DNA from: Clostridia bacterium
GTDB lineage: Bacteria; Bacillota; DAOUPZ01
Assembly (NCBI GenBank): GCA_030625885.1
Contig: DAOUPZ010000010.1
Coordinates: 29,812-93,811, forward strand
Length of the DNA stretch: 64,000 nt
Reading direction: 5' to 3'
Shown here: piece after piece, positions 1 to 56,963 of the stretch
Layout of the letters: each line of letters begins with the position of its first letter
Position numbering within the stretch: position 1 is the stretch's first letter
Translations under genes and position numbers: made by a program
Notes under the pieces: generated by a model
The model's input: only the letters and a program-made list of their open reading frames with translations
What the model was told of the DNA's origin: nothing
Databases searched by the model: none

Positions 1-2
1 AA

Positions 3-146
3 GAACCTTCAAATGAAGAATTTTCTCAAAATGTAAAAGCTTTTATTGCTACATTGGAAAGTATAAGTGCAATAGAAAAGCTTTCTGATAACAGCTATAT
101 TGTGTATGATAGCGGAAGTATAGGAGGTGTGTCATGGTTAATATAA
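3..146 (+). CDS. 3' end of an upstream gene in the AT-rich island (frame 3, open from the window edge, stop TAA at 144-146). It overlaps the next start by 13 nt.
   Basis: Frame 3 is open from position 3 to the TAA at 144-146 (…EPSNEEFSQNVKAFIATLESISAIEKLSDNSYIVYDSGSIGGVSWLI*). GGAGG at 123-127 serves the ATG at 134. Composition matches the island. Confidence 0.4.
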   Translation, partial: EPSNEEFSQNVKAFIATLESISAIEKLSDNSYIVYDSGSIGGVSWLI

Positions 147-3100
147 CAACTATAGATGAAAAGATATATAATATTTTATTGAAATATATAAAGGGAAGGT
201 ATCTAGGAGATACTCTTTTTTGTTGTATATCAGGCTGCAATAATAGGGTGATAAAGTATATAAAAGACAATTTATCAATACTTCAAAGTATAGAGAAAGA
301 ATATCATATCATGCCTATTTTTGAAGAAAAAACCAATTTTTCGTTTAATGAAATTGTGAGAATAAGAAATGATAAGGATATTAAGAAAATAATTATTTTT
401 ACAAATGGAAGTATAAGTAATATAGATTCACTTAAGGATTTTGCCCAAGTTGACATTAAAAAAATTCCATTTATGGATTTATGGGGTATTATTCAAGAAG
501 AGTGTGAAATTTATTGGAATGAAAATGATAAGTATAATGCGATTGAAAAATTTTTAAAGGATTTAACAGATATAATACAGCCTGAAATATATAATTTAAT
601 AGAGTATTTAGAGAAAGTAAATAAAGATAGTGTAATATATGATGATTTAATTTTAGCATTGAATACAGATTTGTATATGTTTAATATCTGGGCATCTTCA
701 TGTAATACGGTGTTACGAAAAAGCAAATTACAGACTATATATCATAATTCTGATCCTATTCAAATTCATAAGAAGATAACATCACCAAAAGATATCGAAA
801 AAATACAAAAGAGCAAAGATATTGACAAAGCCATACGAGGAAGATTCGGCAATATACGAAAGCAAAAAACAATACTAAGAGAGATGTTTTATGAGCGAAA
901 ATATAGCCAAGCATACAGAGAAATTTATTATGAAATTATTGAAAATATTCTTAAAGGAAGTGGAAAAAAGAAGAAAAGGAAAACTCATGAAGAAGAGGAT
1001 TCTTATAGTTACACTAATATATATAGTCTAGCATTAGGTGCATTAGCAGATTTAGACAATGATGTCACAGTAAGTGTTGATGAAATTAAAAGAGTTACAA
1101 GTTTTAATGATATAGATTTTGAGAATGATGCTGAAGAAGATTATCATTATAAGGTTGATATACCGTATTACTCAAATGAACAAAGTAATAATGAAGATAT
1201 ATTCGTAAATTTGGAAGATGCTAAAGTGAAGTGGAGTCAGTTTCAAAATAACTTTGCAGATAAAGATTATAGAGAAGATATTGTAGAATTATGTGATAAT
1301 TTAAATATACATAATAAAGATAAAATAATTTTAAAAAATAAGTTGGAAAGGTATCTTAATGCTAGAGATTATTTTATAAAACAAAACAATAATCCAATTA
1401 ACCTCAATGGTCTATTAAATAATTCCATAAAGTATGTAACATCTTTTTTCGAACTAATAAAAGAATTATATAATTTTAGACAAGCTACAATAAAAAATAT
1501 TTCTATGAATGGTTTAATTAATAAACTTGTTAACATTGATATCAAAATAAAAAATAATGAAATATATGTACCATTCTATAGTCCATTATTAATATTTCAT
1601 TTGCATAATATGAGAAGTAGATATGAAAAATGTTTATCAATTATTAATAAAATGAATACATATAGAGTTGAGATATTAGAACAAATAAATACTAAAATTT
1701 TAAATGAATATATAGTTTATGATAATAAAACCTATTTATTATCTCAAGATAATAGTAAATTTCCTTATTACATTAAATATATATGTGAAGAATATGTAGA
1801 TAGTATTATTACAATTAATTTTAATGTTATTTCACCATATATAATTAAATATATTAAGAAATATCCTTATAAAAATATAATTAAATTATGTCTAATAGGT
1901 GAAGTAGATTTAAAATCATTAAAAAATACCCTGTTAAAAATATTAGAAAAGATAGATTATTCAAACTTAACACGTTTTAGGCTTAAAATTATTACAAAAT
2001 CACCCAATGATGTTAGAGAAGTTCTTATTTCATTGTTTGAACAAAAAGAAAGCTTAAATAAAAAAATTGAATGTACTATAGAAAGGATGAAGTTAAATAT
2101 TAATCTAGAAAAATATGTGGAGAATTTAATTATTGAAAATGATATAACACTATTTTTGGATAGCAGTATAATGTATTTAAAAACACGTTTTAATAAAAAG
2201 AATGATAGTTATATTGAGAGGGTGGTTAGCTATAGAGATATATCTAGTGAAATTAATAGTATTTCTTATGTTTTAGAAGGTAAAAAAGACAGTATGCCTA
2301 TTATACCTAATGTTATAAATGTATTACAGAACTCTATTGAAAATGAAAACTTACAGAATGGAGAACTAGATAAATATAACTTAAATAATAATTTGATTTC
2401 TTGTATAAATAAGACTTTAAGTGATCTGAAGAATGAAGATAAAGAAGTTATACTTCTTTCAAGTGATAGCAAAATAGATGAACAAATTTTAGATAATCGA
2501 AATCTTAGTGAAATTGACGAGGCTGTCAATAAAAATGACAAAATAAAAGTGTTGACATTTTGTAAATGCACTAAAAATAAAGATGAATATACATTTAAAG
2601 AAAGCAATCATTACATTGAGTTTAATGCAAGTAATTTGTTAGATAGTTTTTTAATTGATAGTAAGCTGGGTTTTTCTTTTATGGACATAGATTTTGAAGA
2701 TATAATTATACGTATGTCATATGGAAATTTTCCACAAGCAATTGATATAGCCTATTATTTTATTAAAGAGTATGATGATGAAATCAGTAAAAAGATTGAA
2801 ATTGAAGTAGAATGTAAAAAAATGTTTGATACATTTATTAAAGTATCTATTAAACCTGAGTTATTTTTAGATAATTATAACAAAGAAAATTTTGTTAAAC
2901 TATTGTTAAGGAGTGCTAAAACAGAGGAAGATGTAGTTTTTATATATTCATTTGAAAATATTTATAATGATATTAAAATTAATTATATAGGAAATATAGA
3001 TTATAAAGATAAATCAAATATTACTAAAATATCTTCAATTAATAGAAATACAGTGTATAGAATATTAAAAATTTTAGGTGAAGAAGCTATTTCTGAACAA

Positions 3101-3262
3101 GCAATAAATAATTTTTCAGAAATGCTCAAAGTTAATAATTTTAGTATTAGCAATTTACCAATGTTACAAATATTAATTTCAAAATATAACCACAATTATA
3201 ATAACATGAAATATTTATATGAGAATATAGGTGCCGTGATTAAAAATATGGAGGTGAAATAA
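134..3262 (+). CDS. Large hypothetical protein (1042 aa), N/K/I-rich, with no recognisable catalytic motif. It is the first complete gene of the island operon.
   Basis: Uninterrupted 3.1-kb ORF, RBS GGAGG 7 nt upstream. Its stop TAA is directly followed by the ATG of the next gene (taaATG). No Walker or other known motif found by eye. Confidence 0.7.
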   Translation: MVNITTIDEKIYNILLKYIKGRYLGDTLFCCISGCNNRVIKYIKDNLSILQSIEKEYHIMPIFEEKTNFSFNEIVRIRNDKDIKKIIIFTNGSISNIDSLKDFAQVDIKKIPFMDLWGIIQEECEIYWNENDKYNAIEKFLKDLTDIIQPEIYNLIEYLEKVNKDSVIYDDLILALNTDLYMFNIWASSCNTVLRKSKLQTIYHNSDPIQIHKKITSPKDIEKIQKSKDIDKAIRGRFGNIRKQKTILREMFYERKYSQAYREIYYEIIENILKGSGKKKKRKTHEEEDSYSYTNIYSLALGALADLDNDVTVSVDEIKRVTSFNDIDFENDAEEDYHYKVDIPYYSNEQSNNEDIFVNLEDAKVKWSQFQNNFADKDYREDIVELCDNLNIHNKDKIILKNKLERYLNARDYFIKQNNNPINLNGLLNNSIKYVTSFFELIKELYNFRQATIKNISMNGLINKLVNIDIKIKNNEIYVPFYSPLLIFHLHNMRSRYEKCLSIINKMNTYRVEILEQINTKILNEYIVYDNKTYLLSQDNSKFPYYIKYICEEYVDSIITINFNVISPYIIKYIKKYPYKNIIKLCLIGEVDLKSLKNTLLKILEKIDYSNLTRFRLKIITKSPNDVREVLISLFEQKESLNKKIECTIERMKLNINLEKYVENLIIENDITLFLDSSIMYLKTRFNKKNDSYIERVVSYRDISSEINSISYVLEGKKDSMPIIPNVINVLQNSIENENLQNGELDKYNLNNNLISCINKTLSDLKNEDKEVILLSSDSKIDEQILDNRNLSEIDEAVNKNDKIKVLTFCKCTKNKDEYTFKESNHYIEFNASNLLDSFLIDSKLGFSFMDIDFEDIIIRMSYGNFPQAIDIAYYFIKEYDDEISKKIEIEVECKKMFDTFIKVSIKPELFLDNYNKENFVKLLLRSAKTEEDVVFIYSFENIYNDIKINYIGNIDYKDKSNITKISSINRNTVYRILKILGEEAISEQAINNFSEMLKVNNFSISNLPMLQILISKYNHNYNNMKYLYENIGAVIKNMEVK

Positions 3263-4285
3263 ATGAATAATGAAACTGAAAAGAAAAGTAATATAATTTG
3301 TATAAATTCTATTAAAGGTGGAGCTGGAAAGACAACTATTGCATTATCATTAGCATATTCTTTGCTTTCAGAGTTAGAAGTTAAATATGATAGTGATAGA
3401 TTGCAAGGAGAAGATGAGAATGTTACAGAAATACAAGAGCCAAAAGTTTGTTATATTGATTTAGATATATTGGGTACGGGGGCTAAACACATAATTTATG
3501 GAGAAAATTATATTGAAGATGATATAAAGTATTTAAATGATATGAAATCTACCGATAAAGATTTTAAACAATACATAAACTACTTAATAATAGAAGGTAA
3601 AAAATTTTGTGTTGATTGTATTATATTGAATGATGCTCCTGAAGAAAAAAATAAGTTTATTAATAATGCACGTTCACATACATCTACAGTTAATATAAAT
3701 ATGTTTCAAGGTAGGGCAAAAAAATTATTAGCTGAAATAGTTAAAGAAAATATTTATGACTATATTATTATTGACTGTGCTCCAGGTTACGAAGGATTTT
3801 CGCGAAATATATATGATTATTTAAAAAAAGAAATCAAGCTAAGGTATAATCATGTGAGAAATGTATATAATTTATTTATAACCACTTTGGATAAAGCGCA
3901 TGTAATGAATACAATTTCTTTTGTATATAATATTATAACTGCCACTGATAATAACCTAAATATTAAAATAGTTCTAAATGATACTTTGAATTACTTTGAT
4001 AATGAAGGCAAAAAAGAGGAGTTTATTAGTAATGTGATTGATAAATTCTCATTATTAAGTAAGAAAGAGATGGAGGAGTGTGGGGACAACCATAATCCTT
4101 CAATAATTAGTTTTAATATTGAATCTATAGTTGTAAAAAAATATAGTGATATAGCATTAAATATGTTTTTTGGAAATGGCAAACAATTACATGGTACTAG
4201 ACTTTGTGAGAACATAGATGATCGAGAGCTAGTTAAAACATTAAAAATATTATCATTTGGAGGTAATGATATTGTGGATTATTGA
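3263..4285 (+). CDS. ParA/MinD/Soj-type P-loop ATPase (deviant Walker A).
   Basis: N-terminal ICINSIKGGAGKTTIALSLA matches the KGGxGKT deviant Walker A. The hydrophobic YDYIIIDCAPG matches a ParA-type Walker B. Translationally coupled to the flanking genes. Confidence 0.75.
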   Translation: MNNETEKKSNIICINSIKGGAGKTTIALSLAYSLLSELEVKYDSDRLQGEDENVTEIQEPKVCYIDLDILGTGAKHIIYGENYIEDDIKYLNDMKSTDKDFKQYINYLIIEGKKFCVDCIILNDAPEEKNKFINNARSHTSTVNINMFQGRAKKLLAEIVKENIYDYIIIDCAPGYEGFSRNIYDYLKKEIKLRYNHVRNVYNLFITTLDKAHVMNTISFVYNIITATDNNLNIKIVLNDTLNYFDNEGKKEEFISNVIDKFSLLSKKEMEECGDNHNPSIISFNIESIVVKKYSDIALNMFFGNGKQLHGTRLCENIDDRELVKTLKILSFGGNDIVDY

Positions 4286-5963
4286 TGATAATAATATGCA
4301 AAATTTTTTTTCTGAGTGGTACGATAAATCAAATAAGATATTTAGTGATGAATTATCGAATGATATAGAACAAATGAACAAAAACATATTTTTATCACAA
4401 AATATAGATTTGAATTATGCAACTATGCAAAAAAACTTACACATGATTTTTGGTGAAAATACAAATGTAGAAAAACAGGTTTGTTTATTTGATGGTGTAT
4501 TAGAATTTTTACAGCATGTTGTTCAAGTAGATGGAGCTGATAGATTATTTAGTAAACATTTTTATGATATTGAATGGAATATGTTTTTAGAAGCAGATTT
4601 TGAAAAAAGTGAGATGAAAGTATATAGAGATCATTTTGTACATCAAATTAGAAATGCTTATTTAGGATATTACCTAATATGGGAAATAGGATTATATAAA
4701 AATATTGAATATGCAGTTCATAAATATGGTTCAACAGGATTCTCACAATATATAAATATATATAAATCAAAAGAATTAAATTCTGATGATAGAAAAATTT
4801 TTTATCAAAAAGTAATAATGAAAACTTGGTTTTTATCAGCTCTTTTTCATGATATAGGATATCCATTAGCATATCACCAAAGATATTCAGCAAGAATGGA
4901 CAAATATATGCCATATCTTAGAGTTTTGGATAACAGAAGACAGATGGATTTTATAGAACTATCGGCATTATTATCAGATACTTACTTGTTTAAAATGGTT
5001 GATTATGAAGAATTGAAATTAAAATATGAAAGATTTGATCATGGAATGTTGTCAGCAATATGCTTGCTCTTAAACTATTATCATACCGGTGCTATACACA
5101 GATTGTCAAATTCGGATAGATGTTCAATTGAACTAGCTGCTTATGCAATATTTGTTCATACAAGAAATTATTCTATACAAGGAAATTTAGAAAAAAATAT
5201 AAGACCTATTTTTGTTGAAGATCCTATTGCATATCTGCTACGATTATGTGATGATTTACAAGAATGGGCAAGAGTATATTTTATAGTAGGAGAAAATAGT
5301 AATGTTTTAATATGTGATAAATGTAAAAAAACAGTTGAGAAACAGGAAAATAGTGATATATATAGATGTAAATGTGGTAATACCTTCAAGAAAATTACTT
5401 CCATTAATTATAGAAAGATTAATCTAGTTGAAGTATGTAAAAAACTAACAATTGAAGATGATGGTAAAAAAATTATCTTTAAATTGGATTATGATTTGTT
5501 AAAATTAATGGAAGTTATAAAAATAGATGAACAATATGCAAAATATAGGGTAAAAGAACTTTCCAATTTAAAGAAATTATTAACAGATCAAGCGTTATTA
5601 CCAGAAATTGATATTAATTACTTTATAAGTAATAATCATATGGAAATAAAAGTTGAAATATTCTTGAGATATATAGAAAAATATTTTAAAGAAAAATATA
5701 TTAAAATAGCGTCTAAAGATTCAAATAGAATTAAACATGAATTTATGTTAGAAAATCAGAAAGAAATAGAAACATCTATTATTCGCAATTTACACTTGGA
5801 GTGTGATGATAATATAAAAGAATCTCTACGATGTGAGATGGAGAGTATTATTGAATATTTATGCAATAATAAACAAAGAGAACTAATATGCAAAAATCCT
5901 CCATGTGAAAATTATATGGAAAATATATATCTATATACATTAATAGACGGTGTTTGTCAATAA
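4257..5963 (+). CDS. HD-domain (metal-dependent phosphohydrolase or nuclease-like) protein with an internal Cys4 zinc ribbon. Start is uncertain: TTG 4257 or 4272, or ATG 4296.
   Basis: RDHFVHQIRNAYLG (His motif I), LFHDIGYPLAYH (HD motif), FDHGMLSAICL and LLRLCDDLQEW (distal His and Asp). CDKCKK…(x14)…CKCG zinc ribbon. It overlaps the end of the ATPase gene by 29 nt. Confidence 0.6.
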   Translation: MEVMILWIIDDNNMQNFFSEWYDKSNKIFSDELSNDIEQMNKNIFLSQNIDLNYATMQKNLHMIFGENTNVEKQVCLFDGVLEFLQHVVQVDGADRLFSKHFYDIEWNMFLEADFEKSEMKVYRDHFVHQIRNAYLGYYLIWEIGLYKNIEYAVHKYGSTGFSQYINIYKSKELNSDDRKIFYQKVIMKTWFLSALFHDIGYPLAYHQRYSARMDKYMPYLRVLDNRRQMDFIELSALLSDTYLFKMVDYEELKLKYERFDHGMLSAICLLLNYYHTGAIHRLSNSDRCSIELAAYAIFVHTRNYSIQGNLEKNIRPIFVEDPIAYLLRLCDDLQEWARVYFIVGENSNVLICDKCKKTVEKQENSDIYRCKCGNTFKKITSINYRKINLVEVCKKLTIEDDGKKIIFKLDYDLLKLMEVIKIDEQYAKYRVKELSNLKKLLTDQALLPEIDINYFISNNHMEIKVEIFLRYIEKYFKEKYIKIASKDSNRIKHEFMLENQKEIETSIIRNLHLECDDNIKESLRCEMESIIEYLCNNKQRELICKNPPCENYMENIYLYTLIDGVCQ

Positions 5964-6095: not shown

Positions 6096-6215
6096 CTGTC
6101 AAAGGGACGGGGTTGTTGACAACACCCCTAATTTGGGATAACCTAGATTAGGGGTGTTTTTTATGCCGAGAAAAGCAAGAAACAAAATTGAGAGGCTAAC
6201 AGGTATCAACAGGGT
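6096..6215 (+). repeat. Structured repeat, copy 1: TTGACA, 36-nt perfect hairpin, T6, conserved ATGCCGAGAAAAGCAAGAA, and a GCTAACAGGTATCAACA box.
   Basis: Hairpin is ACACCCCTAATTTGGGATAACCTAGATTAGGGGTGT followed by TTTTTT. The flanking sequence aligns with copy 2 at 9198-9300. Confidence 0.7.
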
Positions 6216-6296
6216 GATTGTTTTAAAAGCAAAACAGCATCTTTTGTGGTATAATTATCCACAAAAGATGCTGTTTTTAGTATAGAGAGGAAGGAT

Positions 6297-6629
6297 ATGA
6301 TGGAAAAAATAAATTTAAGCGCTGCCAATGTGAAAAATGCTAAAAAAAATATCAAGAGGAACATTGATTTGCAAAAACCTTTTACTGTCGTGCTTCAAGG
6401 AAGAAAAGCGCAATCAATAATTAGAAAAATTAATACCTCTTCCCTTAAGGAGGATTTTGTAACCGCAAAAGGGGCATTATTAGATAGTGATTCTGATTTA
6501 AAATTTTATATCGTTGCAGCGATCGGGTTAATTACAATGGTAACTTCATTAGAAGGTTATAGACTATTTGTAAAAACAAATATAGATAATAGTGAGGAAG
6601 TAATAATCATATTTAAGAGAGAGAAATAA
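6297..6629 (+). CDS. Hypothetical small protein (110 aa).
   Basis: ORF with GAGAGGAAGG RBS-like sequence upstream. No motif recognised. Confidence 0.35.
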   Translation: MMEKINLSAANVKNAKKNIKRNIDLQKPFTVVLQGRKAQSIIRKINTSSLKEDFVTAKGALLDSDSDLKFYIVAAIGLITMVTSLEGYRLFVKTNIDNSEEVIIIFKREK

Positions 6630-6794
6630 ATTTTCCTCTTTCCTTCGCTTTTTCTGCAAACCTGTAATGTAAGTTTTTTATTGCGTTACGTATACTTAAA
6701 AAATAAAAGAGGAATACAATTTGTCAATCAGACAAATTAAGGGGTTAACGGGTATCAGCAATCTTGTTCCCCCTGCTAGATTGGAGGAAAACTT

Positions 6795-7079
6795 ATGCGG
6801 GATAATGTTTTAGATGAAATAAGAGAAATTGCTATGAAGTATAATATTCAAAAGGTTATACTGTTTGGCTCTCGTGCAAGGGGAGATTATTTACCTACTA
6901 GCGATTATGATTTTGCAATCATTGCAGAGGATTTATCTGTTTTGGATAAAGCTATTTTTTGTGCCGACGTTGAGGAAATTAACACACTCAAAAAAATTGA
7001 TATTGTATTTGTTGACTCAAATACTAGTAATGATTTGATGAAGAATATCAAGAGGGATGGTGTGATCATATATGAGTAA
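6795..7079 (+). CDS. Nucleotidyltransferase (MNT or MntA-like antitoxin) of an MNT/HEPN pair.
   Basis: LFGSRARGDYLPTSDYDFAI carries the GSxxxG…DxD pol-beta-type nucleotidyltransferase signature. It overlaps the downstream HEPN gene by 8 nt. Confidence 0.8.
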   Translation: MRDNVLDEIREIAMKYNIQKVILFGSRARGDYLPTSDYDFAIIAEDLSVLDKAIFCADVEEINTLKKIDIVFVDSNTSNDLMKNIKRDGVIIYE

Positions 7080-7464
7080 GTTAGAAACAAAATTAAATAA
7101 TTTTACTAATGCATTACAGAGATTAAAAGAAGCCGCAATAGAGCTTGAAAAAGATGATGCGAGTGATGTTGTGCGTGATGGTCTTATTCAAAGATTTGAG
7201 TTTACTTATGAACTTGCATGGAAGACCACAAAGCAATATTTGGAAGAGGTCGGTATTGTAGACAATAATTCTCCAAAAGCTGTTATAAAAGCAGCATATG
7301 CTCAGAATCTTATTTTTAATGAGCAAAACTGGTTACTTATGCTAAATGATAGAAATCTGACTTCTCATGTATATAAGGAAGAAATAGCAGAAGAAATAGC
7401 TGAGAGAATAACCGATTATTATATTAATGAATTTGAGAAATTGCTAAGCAAACTACAAGTATAA
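7072..7464 (+). CDS. HEPN-domain toxin (HepT-like).
   Basis: C-terminal RNLTSHVY fits the Rx4HxY HEPN motif. Size 130 aa. Gene order MNT then HEPN. Confidence 0.8.
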   Translation: MSKLETKLNNFTNALQRLKEAAIELEKDDASDVVRDGLIQRFEFTYELAWKTTKQYLEEVGIVDNNSPKAVIKAAYAQNLIFNEQNWLLMLNDRNLTSHVYKEEIAEEIAERITDYYINEFEKLLSKLQV

Positions 7465-7502
7465 ATAAGTCTGTTACCAGACAAAAACGGAAGGAGACGA
7501 CT

Positions 7503-7955
7503 ATGAAGAAATTAATTGTTTATGTTTCAGTACATCATAACAATACTAAGAAAGTAGCGGAGCGGATGGCAGCTGTTTTAGGTGCGGATTGCCTAGCAGC
7601 TAAAGATGTTGATCATGCGTTGCTTTTGGAATATGATGTGATTGGTTTGGGTTCGGGTATCTTTTTTGGTAGACATCATAATCGTTTGATTCAACTGGTT
7701 AAGGAAGCTGCTGTTTTAAAGGGGAAAAAGGTTTTTGTTTTTTCCACGGCTGGTTTTGAAAAAATAGCGTTTCATAATCACTTAAAACGATTACTTGATA
7801 ATATAGGTGCAGAAATTATAGGTGAATTTATTTGCTCTGGTTGGGATACTTATGGTCCTTTTAAATTAGTAGGTGGTATCAAAAAGAATAGACCGAATAA
7901 TCATGATTTAGAGCGGGCTGTTCAGTTTGCGGAGGAACTTAAAAAGGGAATATAA
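7503..7955 (+). CDS. Flavodoxin-like fold protein.
   Basis: MKKLIVYVSVHHNNTKKVAERMAAVLGA… has the typical flavodoxin N-terminus and a GLGSGIFFG loop. Confidence 0.5.
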   Translation: MKKLIVYVSVHHNNTKKVAERMAAVLGADCLAAKDVDHALLLEYDVIGLGSGIFFGRHHNRLIQLVKEAAVLKGKKVFVFSTAGFEKIAFHNHLKRLLDNIGAEIIGEFICSGWDTYGPFKLVGGIKKNRPNNHDLERAVQFAEELKKGI

Positions 7956-8024
7956 AGAAAGTATGGACTATATTTATGTATTGATAGTTTTTTATTTTAT
8001 TATATACTTTTTAGGGGTTGGGAA

Positions 8025-8070
8025 ACAATTAGGCATATTGTATTCATACAATATGCCTAATTGTTTTTTA
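8025..8070 (+). terminator. Intrinsic terminator after the flavodoxin-like gene.
   Basis: AAACAATTAGGCATATTGTA/TACAATATGCCTAATTGTTT perfect 20-bp stem followed by TTTTAAT. Confidence 0.6.
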
Positions 8071-8238
8071 ATTATATTAAAAATAAACATTGAACTGTTA
8101 TATGTAATGGTATATAATATAATTAAATAAAACATAATATAATATATATGCGGTATAAGCAAAATGAATCGATACAATAAAAGTATATAACAAGACAATT
8201 TATAAAAAATTTTTTAAAATATATAAAGGAGGCTTGGA

Positions 8239-9186
8239 ATGATGAAAGTTTTTGGACCAGTTCCTTCAAGGCGGTTAGGGCAAAGTTTGGGTATTAATAA
8301 TATTCCACCAAAATTTTGTACTTATTCCTGTGCATATTGTCAACTGGGGCACACTAAAAAAGTGCAAATTGAACGTCGTGAATTTTATAAACCAGCGGAG
8401 CTTGTAGCGGAGGTAGAAGAAAAAATAAAAAAAGCGGCAAAAGTAGGTGAGAAAATCGATTACATGACTTTCGTTGCAGATGGTGAACCCACTTTAGATA
8501 TTAATTTAGGTGCGATTATAGACGGTTTAAAACCGCTTGGTATTAAAATAGCCGTGATTAATAATAGTTCACTTATCTGGCGTGAAGATGTCAGAAACGA
8601 CCTTTTGAAAGCAGATTGGGTTTCTCTGAAAGTAGATAGCCTGAGAGAAGAAATATGGCGTAAGATAGATCGTCCTCATCGTGCTTTAAAGCTGGATTCT
8701 ATATTAGAAGGGATTCTGGCGTTTGCGAAAGTTTATAAAGGACAACTGATGACAGAAACGATGCTTGTAAAAGGTATTAACGATGAAGAAGAATATATTA
8801 AGGAAATTGCTGACTTTTTAGCAAAACTCAACCCCAACACATCCTACTTATCTATTCCAATCAGACCACCAGCTGAAGCGTGTATACAAGCGGCAGATGA
8901 AACATTTATCAATCAAGCTTATCAGATCATCAGTGAAAAAGTTAGCAATGTAGAATATCTGATCGGCTACGAAGGTAATGCCTTTGCTTTTACGGGAAAT
9001 GTAAAAGAAGATATCCTCAGTATTACTGCGGTACATCCAATGCGCCAAGATGCGATTGACGACTTTTTAGTTAAGGCAAATGCGACTTGGAATGTTATAA
9101 ATGATTTACTTAAAGAAGAAAAAATTTTCGAAATTAAACACGACAAAAATACTTTTTATATGCGAAATATTGGTTTAAGACGTTAG
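8239..9186 (+). CDS. Radical SAM enzyme.
   Basis: GPVPSRRLGQSLGINNIPPKFCTYSCAYCQLG carries the CxxxCxxC cluster motif immediately after the GPVPSRRLG N-terminus. Confidence 0.8.
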   Translation: MMKVFGPVPSRRLGQSLGINNIPPKFCTYSCAYCQLGHTKKVQIERREFYKPAELVAEVEEKIKKAAKVGEKIDYMTFVADGEPTLDINLGAIIDGLKPLGIKIAVINNSSLIWREDVRNDLLKADWVSLKVDSLREEIWRKIDRPHRALKLDSILEGILAFAKVYKGQLMTETMLVKGINDEEEYIKEIADFLAKLNPNTSYLSIPIRPPAEACIQAADETFINQAYQIISEKVSNVEYLIGYEGNAFAFTGNVKEDILSITAVHPMRQDAIDDFLVKANATWNVINDLLKEEKIFEIKHDKNTFYMRNIGLRR

Positions 9187-9197
9187 ATGCGAACGGG

Positions 9198-9300
9198 ATG
9201 TCAAGGGGGCAGGGTTATTGACAGTATCTCTAATCTAGGATAATCTAGATTAGAGATACTTTTTTATGCCAAGAAAAGCAAGAAGAAAGAGAGGCACAGG
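9198..9300 (+). repeat. Structured repeat, copy 2: TTGACA, 36-nt perfect hairpin, T6, conserved ATGCCAAGAAAAGCAAGAA.
   Basis: Hairpin is GTATCTCTAATCTAGGATAATCTAGATTAGAGATAC followed by TTTTTT. Outer stem bases differ from copy 1 but remain complementary. The inner CTAAT…GGATAA…CTAGATTAG core is conserved. Confidence 0.7.
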
Positions 9301-9304
9301 TAAT

Positions 9305-10033
9305 ATGGTAGTAATTATGATGTGTTTGATAATTATACTATTTGCCAGTGGTATTCAAGGGCTTACCAGTTTTGGATTTGCTATGATCGCAATACCCTTA
9401 TTAACGCTGTTTTTGCCTTTGAAAATTGTAACACCACTGCTTATTATCTATAGTTTGCTGGTTAATGTCATCATTATTTATAAGATAAAAGAATATATAC
9501 AAATTCAGAAAATGGTATATTTGATTATATCCGGGATAATAGGTACGCCTTTGGGGATTTATCTGTTATTAGTAATAGAGGAAGATATATTAAAAGCCGG
9601 TGTGGGAATTGTTATCTTGTTAGCTGCGGGGGCATTATATTATGGGTGTAAGGCAAATATTAAAAATCAAAAACTAGCGAACATCATAACAGGATTATTA
9701 AGTGGCATATTAAATGGTAGTTTAGCAATGAGTGGCCCGCCGGTCATTTTATTTTTGAAAAATGAAGATGTTGAAAAGCAAATTTTTCGAGCAAATCTTG
9801 CGTTCTACTTTGCTATTATTGACCTATTAACCATACCCATATTGATTTATGGAGGATTGATCACACAGGAGGTCTTAAGATATACGTTGTTTTTATTACC
9901 GGGACTTATTATAGGCGCATGGCTTGGAATGTATTTTAGTAATAAGGTGAACAATGAGATATTTAAAAGATTTACTTTATACCTAATAGCTGTTATGGGT
10001 GTTTTATCAATTGTGTCTTCAGTTATTAAATGA
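9305..10033 (+). CDS. TSUP (TauE/SafE) family membrane transporter. The start is probably at the internal Met MVVIMM rather than the MPRKAR of the ORF track.
   Basis: Polytopic membrane protein with duplicated 4-TM halves and GIIGTPLG / SGILNGSLAMSGPP glycine-rich motifs. The first 13 codons of the tracked ORF lie inside the repeat element. Confidence 0.6.
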   Translation: MVVIMMCLIIILFASGIQGLTSFGFAMIAIPLLTLFLPLKIVTPLLIIYSLLVNVIIIYKIKEYIQIQKMVYLIISGIIGTPLGIYLLLVIEEDILKAGVGIVILLAAGALYYGCKANIKNQKLANIITGLLSGILNGSLAMSGPPVILFLKNEDVEKQIFRANLAFYFAIIDLLTIPILIYGGLITQEVLRYTLFLLPGLIIGAWLGMYFSNKVNNEIFKRFTLYLIAVMGVLSIVSSVIK

Positions 10034-10361: not shown

Positions 10362-10482
10362 ATCTCTTATCGAGAGATGGCGGAGGGACTGGCCCAATGA
10401 AGCCCGGCAACCGATCTTTGCACATTTGTAGAGACACGGTGCCAATTCCAGCAGAATACATTTATTCTGACAGATAAGGGGA
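10362..10482 (+). ncRNA. SAM-I (S-box) riboswitch.
   Basis: CTCTTATCGAGAGATGGCGGAGGGACTGGCCCAATGAAGCCCGGCAACC…GGTGCCAATTCCAGCAGA…GATAAGGGGAGG matches the S-box consensus, including the P1 halves CTCTTATC/GATAAG. Confidence 0.85.
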
Positions 10483-10627: not shown

Positions 10628-12004
10628 ATGAGTGATATGAGGCGTTTAAGACAGTGTGGTAAAGAACATCCGTATATTTCTGTAGGAATATTTAAGCTTA
10701 GGATCCCATTTGTGCATTATGGATGGGAATGGCCTGAAGCTTTGCAAGGTATGATATTAGTTGCCGTGGCATTAGGTGCAATACCTATATTACAGGAAAC
10801 GTTAGGCGTTTCTTTTGATTTGGCGCTAACCATAGTTGCTTTGAATGGGATTTTATATGTTCTACATCCTACCTTTGGCGATCCGGTATTTCCGGGTTGG
10901 ATTACGCCTGCTATTCCTCTTGTATTAGGTTATACGGCTGGATTTTCCCAAGGCATTGATCGAATTCATGCTATTATTGCTTTGCAGTTATCTATGGCCA
11001 TCGTTTTTACTTTTATGGGGGTAACAGGTTTAGCTAAAAAAATGGTATCTATTGTACCGGTTTCCATGAGGGCGGGTATTATACTGGGAGCCGGTATTGC
11101 GGCCGTAGTAAGCGTTATTAAACCAGATGGCCGTATGGCCGGTCAAGAAACAACGATCTTAATCGGGAGTGTGATCTGTTATATTATTTTGTTTTCCTAT
11201 CGTTTCAGTTGTGTGAAAGAAAAAGTGGGGTTTTTGAAATATTTATCTAAATACGGTATGCTCCCTGGCATGATTATCGCCGCAATTATTGGCCCAATAG
11301 TGGGGGAGATTACATTTCCGCAAATAGAGATGGGGATGATCAGTTTTAGATTGGGTGAAGTGATTAAAGGGTATTCCGTTTTTGGTATTCCTGGTTTCCC
11401 GCCGCTTACGTATTTTCTCAAGGCGATTCCCCTGGCCATTACGGCTTATATTATAGCTTTTGGCGATTTTGTTGTCGCTGAGGTGGTAGCCAAGGATTCT
11501 AATAAGGTTCGTGGTGATGAACAGATTGATTTTAATGCCAATCGCTCCAATATTATTGCAGGTATAAGAAATTTAATCATGGGATTATTTGCACCATTTG
11601 CACCGTTATGCGGCCCGTTATGGGCCGGTGGTACCCTATCGATATATGAACGTTATAAAAGTGGTAGAAGGGATATGGATACCATATTTGGAGGAGCGGG
11701 TTCATATGTTATTACCATGGCGATTGCCGCATTTTTCTTACCCATTATTTCATTAGTAAAACCTGTGCTTCCTGCTGCTTTATCATTAACATTAATTGTT
11801 CAAGGGTTTGCATGTATCTATATCTCAATGGACATGATTAATACAAAGGAAGAACGTGGCACAGCAGGGATCATGGCTATTTTCTTAGCTTTTAGGGGTG
11901 CCTCATGGGGATTAGCAGCGGGTATTGTGCTTTGTTTGATTATTGGTTATAAGAAAGAGGTCATTGAATTGACTCCAAAATCTAAGGCGAAACGGTTAGC
12001 ATAA
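10628..12004 (+). CDS. Polytopic membrane transporter of unrecognised family, SAM-riboswitch regulated (alternative start ATG 10637).
   Basis: 458-aa hydrophobic protein with many predicted TM segments, directly downstream of the S-box leader. Confidence 0.6.
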   Translation: MSDMRRLRQCGKEHPYISVGIFKLRIPFVHYGWEWPEALQGMILVAVALGAIPILQETLGVSFDLALTIVALNGILYVLHPTFGDPVFPGWITPAIPLVLGYTAGFSQGIDRIHAIIALQLSMAIVFTFMGVTGLAKKMVSIVPVSMRAGIILGAGIAAVVSVIKPDGRMAGQETTILIGSVICYIILFSYRFSCVKEKVGFLKYLSKYGMLPGMIIAAIIGPIVGEITFPQIEMGMISFRLGEVIKGYSVFGIPGFPPLTYFLKAIPLAITAYIIAFGDFVVAEVVAKDSNKVRGDEQIDFNANRSNIIAGIRNLIMGLFAPFAPLCGPLWAGGTLSIYERYKSGRRDMDTIFGGAGSYVITMAIAAFFLPIISLVKPVLPAALSLTLIVQGFACIYISMDMINTKEERGTAGIMAIFLAFRGASWGLAAGIVLCLIIGYKKEVIELTPKSKAKRLA

Positions 12005-56815: not shown

Positions 56816-56935
56816 ATATGTCTCTTCGGGGTGGGTGCAAGTCCCAACCGGCGGTTAAAGCCCGCGAGCCACATCATGTGGTTGATTCAGTGTAATTCTG
56901 AAGCCGACAGTTAAAGTCTGGATGGGAGAAGAGGA
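56816..56935 (+). ncRNA. FMN riboswitch (RFN element).
   Basis: TCTCTTCGGGGTGGGTGCAAGTCCCAACCGGCGGT…AGCCCGCGAGC…GGTTGATTCAGTGTAATTCTGAAGCCGACAGT.AAAGTCTGGATGGGAGAAGAGG matches the RFN consensus. Confidence 0.9.
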
Positions 56936-56963
56936 TTTAGAATAATTTTGTAGTGATATGTAT

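Follow-up and report, generated by a model that had tools for sequence, protein, structure and literature searches.

Two structured repeats on a Clostridia contig are probably decayed left ends of RayT/TIRYT-type elements carrying a nested promoter and hairpin leader

The stretch of DNA studied here (the window) is 64,000 nt long and comes from a Clostridia bacterium (assembly GCA_030625885.1, contig DAOUPZ010000010.1, positions 29,812 to 93,811). It contains two direct repeats of about 105 nt, both on the + strand at 6096-6215 and 9198-9300, where an earlier note made from the letters alone had placed them. The repeats flank a 3-kb block with a hypothetical gene, an MNT/HEPN pair, a flavodoxin-like gene and a radical SAM gene, and a TauE/SafE-family gene follows the second copy. 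The two copies have in common a 25-nt box, a 16-bp hairpin, a run of six T (T6 run) and a start box, ATGCCRAGAAAAGCAAGAA. We found that they are relics, with their leader, of a known kind of mobile element, the RayT/TIRYT type, in which a Y1 (HUH) transposase gene lies between terminal inverted repeats (TIRs). This transposase origin had been missed in the earlier note. The box, TGTCAARGGGRCRGGGTTRTTGACA, lies at 6097-6121 and 9199-9223, its sole matches in the 64 kb when up to three mismatches are allowed on both strands (chance expectation 0). Within the window the hairpin core is confined to 6128-6151 and 9230-9253 and the start box to 6163 and 9266, and each of these parts thus occurs exactly twice, with no occurrence expected by chance.

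The shared units reach slightly further than the core marked in the earlier note. That of copy 1 spans 6097-6231, through the last transposase codons. Its box (6097..6121, + strand) has the form TGTCAA-N13-TTGACA and corresponds to the left TIR of RayT/TIRYT-type elements, matching the left and right boxes of two full-length relatives introduced below (L011 and L013). TTGACA, which makes up the 3' half of this box (6116-6121), matches the consensus of a -35 hexamer and has promoter spacing, a -10-like TAACCT (6139-6144) lying 17 nt past it. The leader hairpin (6122..6162) has its 5' arm at 6122-6137, its loop at 6138-6141 and its 3' arm at 6142-6157, with a Shine-Dalgarno (SD)-like GGGGTG at 6151-6156 and the T6 run at 6157-6162. 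The first eight transposase codons (MPRKARNK, 6163..6186; full-length genes begin MPRKARKKSESGIYH) are fused in frame to the last 15 (IERLTGINRVIVLKA, 6187..6231). Copy 2, on the same strand, runs from 9199 to about 9302. It has a box at 9199..9223 with its -35 TTGACA at 9218-9223, a leader hairpin at 9224..9265 (5' arm 9224-9239, loop 9240-9243, 3' arm 9244-9259), a -10-like TAATCT at 9241-9246 and the T6 run at 9260-9265. The codons for MPRKARRK (9266-9289) and then GAGAGGC-ACAGGTA complete the unit (9266..9302), as judged from the alignment of both copies and from the 3' end of a full-length relative (L140). The ATG directly follows the T6 run in both copies.

The stem of copy 2 is perfect (16/16 pairs), as the earlier note had said of both copies; that of copy 1 also has 16 pairs, but two of these are G.T. 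The 11 stem differences between the copies are all transitions, comprising four pairs changed on both sides and three wobble-compatible changes, and none disrupts pairing. When 11 random transitions were simulated, 16/16 pairs were left in 1.5-1.7% of trials (p about 0.016). The 3' arm of copy 2 lacks a Shine-Dalgarno sequence (GAGATAC), and changes in the 5' arm fully restore pairing. Among the 21 related leaders described below copy 2 is the sole one in which the SD has been lost from the 3' arm, and it is still 16/16 paired. The simplest reading is that the hairpin itself was under selection once the gene had died. The copies are about 77% identical across box and hairpin, and the view that they are not a recent duplication was borne out. 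Compared with shuffled sequence the + strand folds with z = -5.1 (copy 1) and -4.4 (copy 2); the minus strand of copy 1 folds worse than the + strand. The leader stems folded alone reach -25.2 and -22.1 kcal/mol. A terminator scan calls both hairpins (17 pairs plus T-run each), in agreement with the earlier suggestion, and with the + strand z-scores, that they resemble terminators. Each hairpin is the first terminator-like structure past a co-directional gene: copy 1 follows an open reading frame (ORF) at 4257-5963, and copy 2 follows the radical SAM gene at 8239-9186. Both hairpins therefore have the layout of an intrinsic terminator, in which the transcribed strand carries a G+C-containing stem-loop and then a T-run after a gene read in the same direction.

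The identity of the repeats came from relatives elsewhere. A scan of one genome per species with TTTTATGCCNAGAAAAGCAAGAA, which joins the T-run and the start box, returned five loci. In three of them a transposase-type gene starts at the match: L011 (a Syntrophomonas metagenome-assembled genome), L012 (Anaerovirgula, in which the gene is frameshifted) and L013 (Pelotomaculum propionicicum). A box lies upstream in all three, and L011 and L012 also have the hairpin and T-run. Box, leader and ATG stand ahead of a full Y1 (HUH) gene of 253 aa in Syntrophomonas, Pelotomaculum, Alkaliphilus and Peptococcaceae loci. The full-length ORF starts MPRKARKKSESGIYHIIMRGINRQ, and the genes finish with SIRQIERLTGINRGVILKA and a stop codon, after which an inverted box follows at once. 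A left box and an inverted right box, 25-nt inverted TGTCAAGGGGACGGGGTTGTTGACA, flank the gene in L011, L013, L016, L025, L085, L138 and L140. Since the inverted box comes directly after the stop codon, the gene sits between 25-nt TIRs.

The proteins of L011 and L013 match Pfam Y1_Tnp (E about 1e-17) and score 78.7 and 74.3 bits with NCBIfam REP_Tyr_transpos, against a cutoff of 80, while full-length relatives score 21.9 bits with NCBIfam transpos_IS200, for which the cutoff is 55. At E <= 1e-30 there are at least 4972 relatives, many of them named RayT or REP-associated tyrosine transposase (RAYT; REP, repetitive extragenic palindrome); the hosts of named relatives include Peptococcaceae, Syntrophomonas, Alkaliphilus, Wukongibacter, Anaerovirgula and Formimonas. 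The HUH residues (H60-V-H62) and Y119 of the RYIHQNP motif are invariant in 27/27 sequences. An AlphaFold model of a full-length relative (mean predicted local distance difference test score 87.8) has as its top PDB match 4ER8_A, E. coli TnpA-REP with a REP hairpin (E 9e-8, template modelling score 0.76, target-normalised), which ranks above the ISDra2, IS608 and IS200 transposases. The model contains a confident all-helical C-terminal region (residues 194-252), to which Pfam HTH_19 matches below its cutoff (E 0.0045, 17 bits). We consider it likely that the window copies are decayed left ends of RayT/TIRYT-type elements, each with a nested promoter/hairpin leader.

Matches to the family in the window are limited to N-terminal remnants of eight codons, found twice, and C-terminal remnants of 5-23 codons, found three times; neither tblastn nor a search of the six-frame translation with the family profile found a full-length Y1 gene in the window. 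Copy 1 consists of box, leader, MPRKARNK and the last 15 codons, the product of an internal deletion of about 700 nt. Its 6184-6231 segment (KIERLTGINRVIVLKA) corresponds to residues 238-253 (75% identity by tblastn; profile E 0.0056). Copy 2 consists of box, leader, MPRKARRK and about five C-terminal codons, its GAGAGGC-ACAGGTA reading as C-terminal codons of the gene, E-R-(L)-T-G, where the 3' end of L140 is GAGAGGCTTACAGGTATCAAT. An origin of the copy 2 codons after MPRKARRK in the gene's N-terminus (SESGIYH) was rejected; GAGAGGC..ACAGGTA fits the 3' end of the full-length genes 14 of 14. The deletion junctions of the two copies coincide within 6 nt. A box search on both strands of the 64-kb window found no right-end box after either copy. 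A third stretch at 6700..6768 on the + strand (KIKEEYNLSIRQIKGLTGISNLV; 65% identity over 20 aa by tblastn) is the 3' end of a RayT-type gene. Its 6700-6762 portion (KIKEEYNLSIRQIKGLTGIS) covers profile positions 227-247 (E 3e-4 in the six-frame window), and because it overlaps the part of the gene kept in copy 1, 6700-6768 is a separate third relic. The related box that the earlier note had seen at 6748-6764 lies within this portion and is real homology. The third remnant is followed at about 6771-6780 (+ strand) by a weak right-box-like GTTCCCCCTG, spotted by eye only.

Internally deleted relatives occur elsewhere. One mini-element (L123) consists of left box, leader, an N::C fusion and right box, its junction similar, though not identical, to those of the window copies, and another (L024:8689) of left box, leader, 11 codons and a right-box-like sequence. 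A third kind, found in multiple copies in L101, L107 and L111, consists of a box, the last ~33 codons and an inverted box, and these copies are evidence that internally deleted derivatives of the element can multiply. Near-identical copies lie at 1094-1260 and 2496-2660 of L101, 1196-1354 of L107 and 944-1105 of L111. A pattern search of metagenomes for the exact N::C fusion of copy 1 gave no match. Other collections yielded little: blastn of the element against a plasmid collection gave only chance matches to AT-rich Leuconostoc sequence, and a scan of viral contigs gave no match with the start box, nine with the hairpin core, which we take as chance level for a 16-mer, and, when guided by protein, just three loci.

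The leaders ahead of the transposase gene show that the hairpin has been maintained as a structure. A plain MAFFT alignment with RNAalifold gave a weak consensus (-1.9 kcal/mol) with misregistered arms, and a covariance-model alignment was used instead; the model (R1), built from four gaplessly aligned leaders, recovered 21 distinct leaders. In this alignment 13 of the 16 stem pairs show changes in both arms, and the proportion of paired cells is 89%. The observed covariation values were matched in 0/500 shuffles, and slid controls were 34-52% paired. This supports the selection on structure that the earlier note had proposed from the two copies. G.U pairs make up about 18% of cells, mostly with a 5'-arm U facing a 3'-arm G, a bias that fits sense-strand RNA pairing onto a fixed, G-rich Shine-Dalgarno. 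Except in copy 2, the Shine-Dalgarno (GGAGGTG or GGGGTG), which precedes the start by 6-8 nt, forms the 3' arm, and a sequence complementary to it forms the 5' arm. A U-A pair at alignment columns 64/140 occurs in one sequence only, which we read as copy 2.

The promoter-like motifs keep a conserved spacing. TTGACA and the start codon are separated by a near-constant 40-44 nt (in L012 the equivalent hexamer is TTGGTT and the distance 47 nt). A TAnnnT hexamer lies 16-18 nt past TTGACA in 18/20 leaders, and exactly 17 nt past it in 15, compared with 10% of composition-matched shuffles. It is located in the loop of hairpin-bearing leaders and is retained in those that have no hairpin, and it is the feature that had been described as a conserved inner core, GGATAA.

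The box itself is a dispersed, REP/REPIN-like repeat in Bacillota metagenomes. A metagenome scan with a degenerate box gave at least 120 loci (734 kb). Among the matches listed there are 207 boxes with up to three mismatches; 41 of these stand beside full or fragmentary Y1 coding sequence, 57 form convergent inverted doublets 12-229 nt apart, 109 are solo, and 188 lie outside long ORFs. The repeats in the window could thus be assigned in part to a generic REP-like family: this holds for the dispersed box, but the part from hairpin to ATG is specific to the transposase leader.

Two loci show how boxes can be arranged around the gene. At the Peptococcaceae SCADC rayT locus (L140-L146), the ~120 nt next to the gene on each side contain arrays of partial boxes (GGGGATGTCATG... 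upstream, CATGACACG... downstream); all 10 places found have the gene at this one locus, where the number of repeats varies between assemblies. In Wukongibacter baidiensis (L136, 1-6762) about ten box-like covariance-model matches lie within 6.7 kb, interleaved with small ORFs, and this cluster adjoins a Barstar-domain gene and a rayT gene.

Di Nocera et al. 2013 (PMC3733652) distinguish RAYT genes with GTAG REPs on their flanks from others that lie between unrelated long TIRs ('TIRtrons', 'TIRYT'); many of these TIRs have GGGGWSAS in common and make up families of moderate abundance, often as dimers. Quentin et al. 2018 (PMC6006769) equate TIRYT with TnpA-Y1 subclass 2.1, whose members carry a helix-turn-helix (HTH) extension at the C-terminus. 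Measured against these descriptions, the elements found here resemble TIRYTs in having a RAYT-like Y1 gene between TIRs rather than GTAG REPs, box repeats that are moderately abundant and often form inverted dimers, and a long protein with a helical, perhaps HTH-like, C-terminal extension. The box core GGGGACGG is G-rich and fits 7/8 positions of the published motif, GGGG[AT][CG]A[CG]. By these features, GGGGACGG in the box and the helical C-terminal region, TIRYT is the closest match. They differ in that the window holds only internally deleted relics, of which the left boxes alone survive. In what is accessible of the two accounts (PMC3733652, PMC6006769), Firmicutes examples are not mentioned, and a leader hairpin or promoter is not described.

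The elements also share features with REP/REPIN-RAYT systems such as E. coli TnpA-REP and Pseudomonas REPINs, and group 1 RAYTs are found in Clostridia as well (Bertels et al. 2017, PMC5581495). The predicted fold best fits 4ER8, one member is at the same locus in 10 assemblies, and copies of the box are scattered, lie mostly between genes and often form convergent doublets (57/207 among the matches listed). However, the box has no GTAG tag and forms a 6-bp stem whose 13-nt loop is G-rich, the REP_Tyr_transpos score falls just below its cutoff, some derivatives here are MITE-like internal deletions that keep gene fragments (MITE, miniature inverted-repeat transposable element), unlike classical REPINs, and, unlike in RAYTs/REPtrons, there is no intact Y1 gene at the window locus. 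The left end of IS200 carries a terminator against impinging transcription together with a stem-loop that sequesters the SD, a near-consensus AAGGGGGU (PMC4513863); the elements here are alike in that a left-end terminator would shield a Y1 transposase gene from impinging transcription and the SD is hidden in a stem-loop. In IS200, however, these are two separate structures and there are no TIRs, whereas here a single hairpin appears to do both jobs, with the -10 in its loop and the element's own transcripts escaping. Nor do the elements belong to IS200/IS605: their ends are inverted repeats, there is no right-end hairpin, and transpos_IS200 gives 21.9 bits against 55.

These features suggest how the leader of an intact element may work. 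The 3' half of the box, TTGACA, would serve as the -35 and TAnnnT in the hairpin loop, 17 nt downstream, as the -10, and the two arms would act as Shine-Dalgarno (3') and anti-SD (5'). Transcripts from this promoter are predicted to start inside the 3' arm, so that the hairpin could not form and the SD would be free. Transcripts arriving from upstream would carry both arms, fold, and stop at the T-run where there is one, as there is in both window copies; those that pass the T-run would have an occluded SD and be translationally silent. This would compress the left-end logic of IS200 into one hairpin. In the 'fold-back inhibition' of IS10/IS50, only externally initiated transcripts contain a segment that pairs with the translation start region. 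The likeness is one of analogy only; the transposases of IS10/IS50 are DDE enzymes of an unrelated family, and no terminator function is known to be involved.

Several observations weigh against this scheme or against a present function of the window copies. The covariance-model alignment is fitted to the structure and its pair counts are therefore inflated. The -10 hexamers of the window copies are weak (TAACCT, TAATCT) and were not called by a consensus promoter scan. A T-run of at least five is found in only about half of the hairpin-bearing leaders and 6/20 leaders have no stable hairpin, which means that termination is not family-wide. The activity of a self-insulated promoter, its transcription start, termination and SD occlusion are all inferred from the sequence. 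The pairing test on the two copies is modest (p = 0.016). Two separate deletions could also account for the shared junction, since the N- and C-terminal stretches of DNA are alike and the L123 junction is similar; in that case the compensatory differences might predate decay and be silent on present function.

The last point leads to a reading of the copies as neutral relics without present function, derived from two parent elements that had already diverged with compensation and whose hairpins have not yet eroded. We regard this as possible, though doubtful. It is in keeping with the independent recurrence of internal deletions at similar junctions (L123, L024:8689), with selection on the hairpin in intact ancestors, and with a two-copy test that reaches only p about 0.016. 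It sits less easily with junctions that coincide within 6 nt, with the position of both hairpins exactly where an operon terminator is expected, and with copy 2, which has lost its SD (the sole case in 21) yet keeps 16/16 pairs. An intact element would not tolerate loss of the SD, so the change in copy 2 most likely followed decay. It is unlikely that the hairpin, rather than being an RNA structure, serves as a single-stranded DNA site recognised by the Y1 transposase, comparable to the subterminal hairpins of IS608/ISDra2 or to REP hairpins. Y1 transposases do bind DNA hairpins, the top structural match is TnpA-REP on a REP hairpin, and the hairpin adjoins the terminal box; but there is no comparable hairpin at the right end, where the inverted box comes directly after the stop codon, and 6/20 full-length leaders are hairpin-less. 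Moreover, the 3' arm is always the SD, the loop carries the -10 when a hairpin is present, the G.U cells (~18%) are strand-specific and the minus strand of copy 1 folds worse.

The earlier note had raised the idea that the copies are recombination or attachment (att)-like borders of a mobile cassette, the 3-kb block with its hypothetical, MNT/HEPN, flavodoxin-like and radical SAM genes. Direct repeats do bracket accessory-type genes here, and the MNT protein matches the candidate defence family PDC-S09. However, no recombinase or integrase domain was found in or beside the block (6297-9186), the repeats are fragments of a transposase gene rather than sites, a third fragment lies inside the block, and the copies are only ~77% identical over box and hairpin. 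There is no composition break at copy 2. The only step in GC content, at ~5.96 kb (0.19-0.28 upstream, 0.32-0.41 downstream), coincides with copy 1 and sets off the upstream ~6 kb with its three genes and not the 3-kb block. Relatives with the same flanks were not found; the exact radical SAM and TauE proteins occur elsewhere only on one public contig of 3.7 kb with identical sequence, and the nearest TauE homologues (55% identical) are in unrelated gene contexts without synteny. We consider such borders very unlikely and have dropped them. A free-standing cis-regulatory RNA of the downstream genes, such as an attenuator or riboswitch-like leader unrelated to mobile DNA, would account for a strong conserved structure with a T-run. 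It is, to our minds, hardly credible: a scan of the whole window against Rfam 15 at gathering score gave no family at either copy, every informative relative has the structure ahead of a Y1 transposase gene or of fragments of one, and the conserved box past the T-run is the start of the transposase gene. The window copies are best understood as left ends of RayT/TIRYT-type elements, whose identity, anatomy, hairpin covariation and -35/-10 spacing are direct observations.

The genes around the relics were also examined. Upstream, 1-5963 contains three co-directional ORFs, 134-3262 (1042 aa), 3263-4285 (340 aa, a ParA/AAA_31-like P-loop protein) and 4257-5963 (568 aa); the 1042-aa and 568-aa proteins have no Pfam or PADLOC match. 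This AT-rich block may be an acquired island. In the block between the copies, Pfam and PADLOC gave no function for ORF 6297-6629, and 6795-7464 encodes an MNT (Polbeta/NTP_transf_2) and HEPN-like (NTase_sub_bind) pair whose MNT protein matches PADLOC candidate defence family PDC-S09 with E 1e-11. Between the flavodoxin-like and radical SAM genes, at 8023-8066, there is a palindrome of 21 bp without mismatch that has a loop of 2 nt and a T-run, and a promoter-like site follows at 8090-8118. The only Rfam matches in the window are a SAM riboswitch at 10364-10480, after the TauE gene and upstream of a permease-like gene (10628-12004), and an FMN riboswitch at 56818-56937, both above gathering score.

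Copy 2 runs into the TauE gene. A public contig with matching sequence calls the TauE ORF at 9266-10033 as 255 aa, from the transposase-derived ATG, whereas a start at 9305 gives 242 aa. Twelve TauE homologues (44-55% identity) begin 9-17 residues after the ATG at 9266, aligning near M14 at 9305, and the Pfam TauE/SafE domain begins at residue 21 of the ORF. The gene thus probably runs from its native start at M14 (9305..10033, + strand). Because the homologues lack the extension, the 13 extra residues come from the transposase gene; the MPRKARRKRGTGN extension is probably transposase-derived and not native TauE protein, consistent with the earlier suspicion that the MPRKARRKRG codons do not belong to TauE. 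The relic's GAGAGG (9289-9294) lies 10 nt upstream of 9305 and may be the ribosome-binding site of TauE, for which copy 2 may also supply the promoter.

Beyond the identity of the relics, we tentatively propose, as a reasonable possibility, that they have been domesticated as terminator/promoter punctuation that uses the nested-promoter design and, for copy 2, provides the TauE promoter and ribosome-binding site. They would then be kept as one-piece insulators that end transcription of the operon before them and start it anew for the gene that follows, and such reuse would explain compensatory pairing even where the SD was lost. Copy 1 and the hairpin at 6231-6277 might delimit a transcript of ~130 nt. 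This latter hairpin, between the copy 1 relic and ORF 6297-6629, is a perfect 19-bp stem with a 9-nt loop (TATAATTAT) and then a T-run; the loop is preceded by TGG, giving an extended -10 (TGnTATAAT), a promoter-in-terminator-loop layout like that of the rayT leader.

These results replace a structured element bracketing a cassette with a concrete identity, RayT/TIRYT relics, and correct a TauE start that was likely mis-called. They also document the cis-anatomy of a large RAYT-like branch in Bacillota (at least 4972 proteins), consisting of REP-like dispersed, inverted 25-nt boxes, a -35 within the box, a covarying hairpin in the leader, predicted to mask the ribosome-binding site, and a -10 in the hairpin loop; this is not reported for the group in the accessible parts of PMC3733652 and PMC6006769. 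If the nested leader works as proposed, a promoter inside a terminator/anti-SD hairpin would be an undescribed design for this RayT subclass, and with the -35 in the TIR each dispersed box would seed a potential promoter. Should the relics prove to work as terminators and promoters, they would offer a clear example of a host that has put a transposon's regulatory DNA to its own use.

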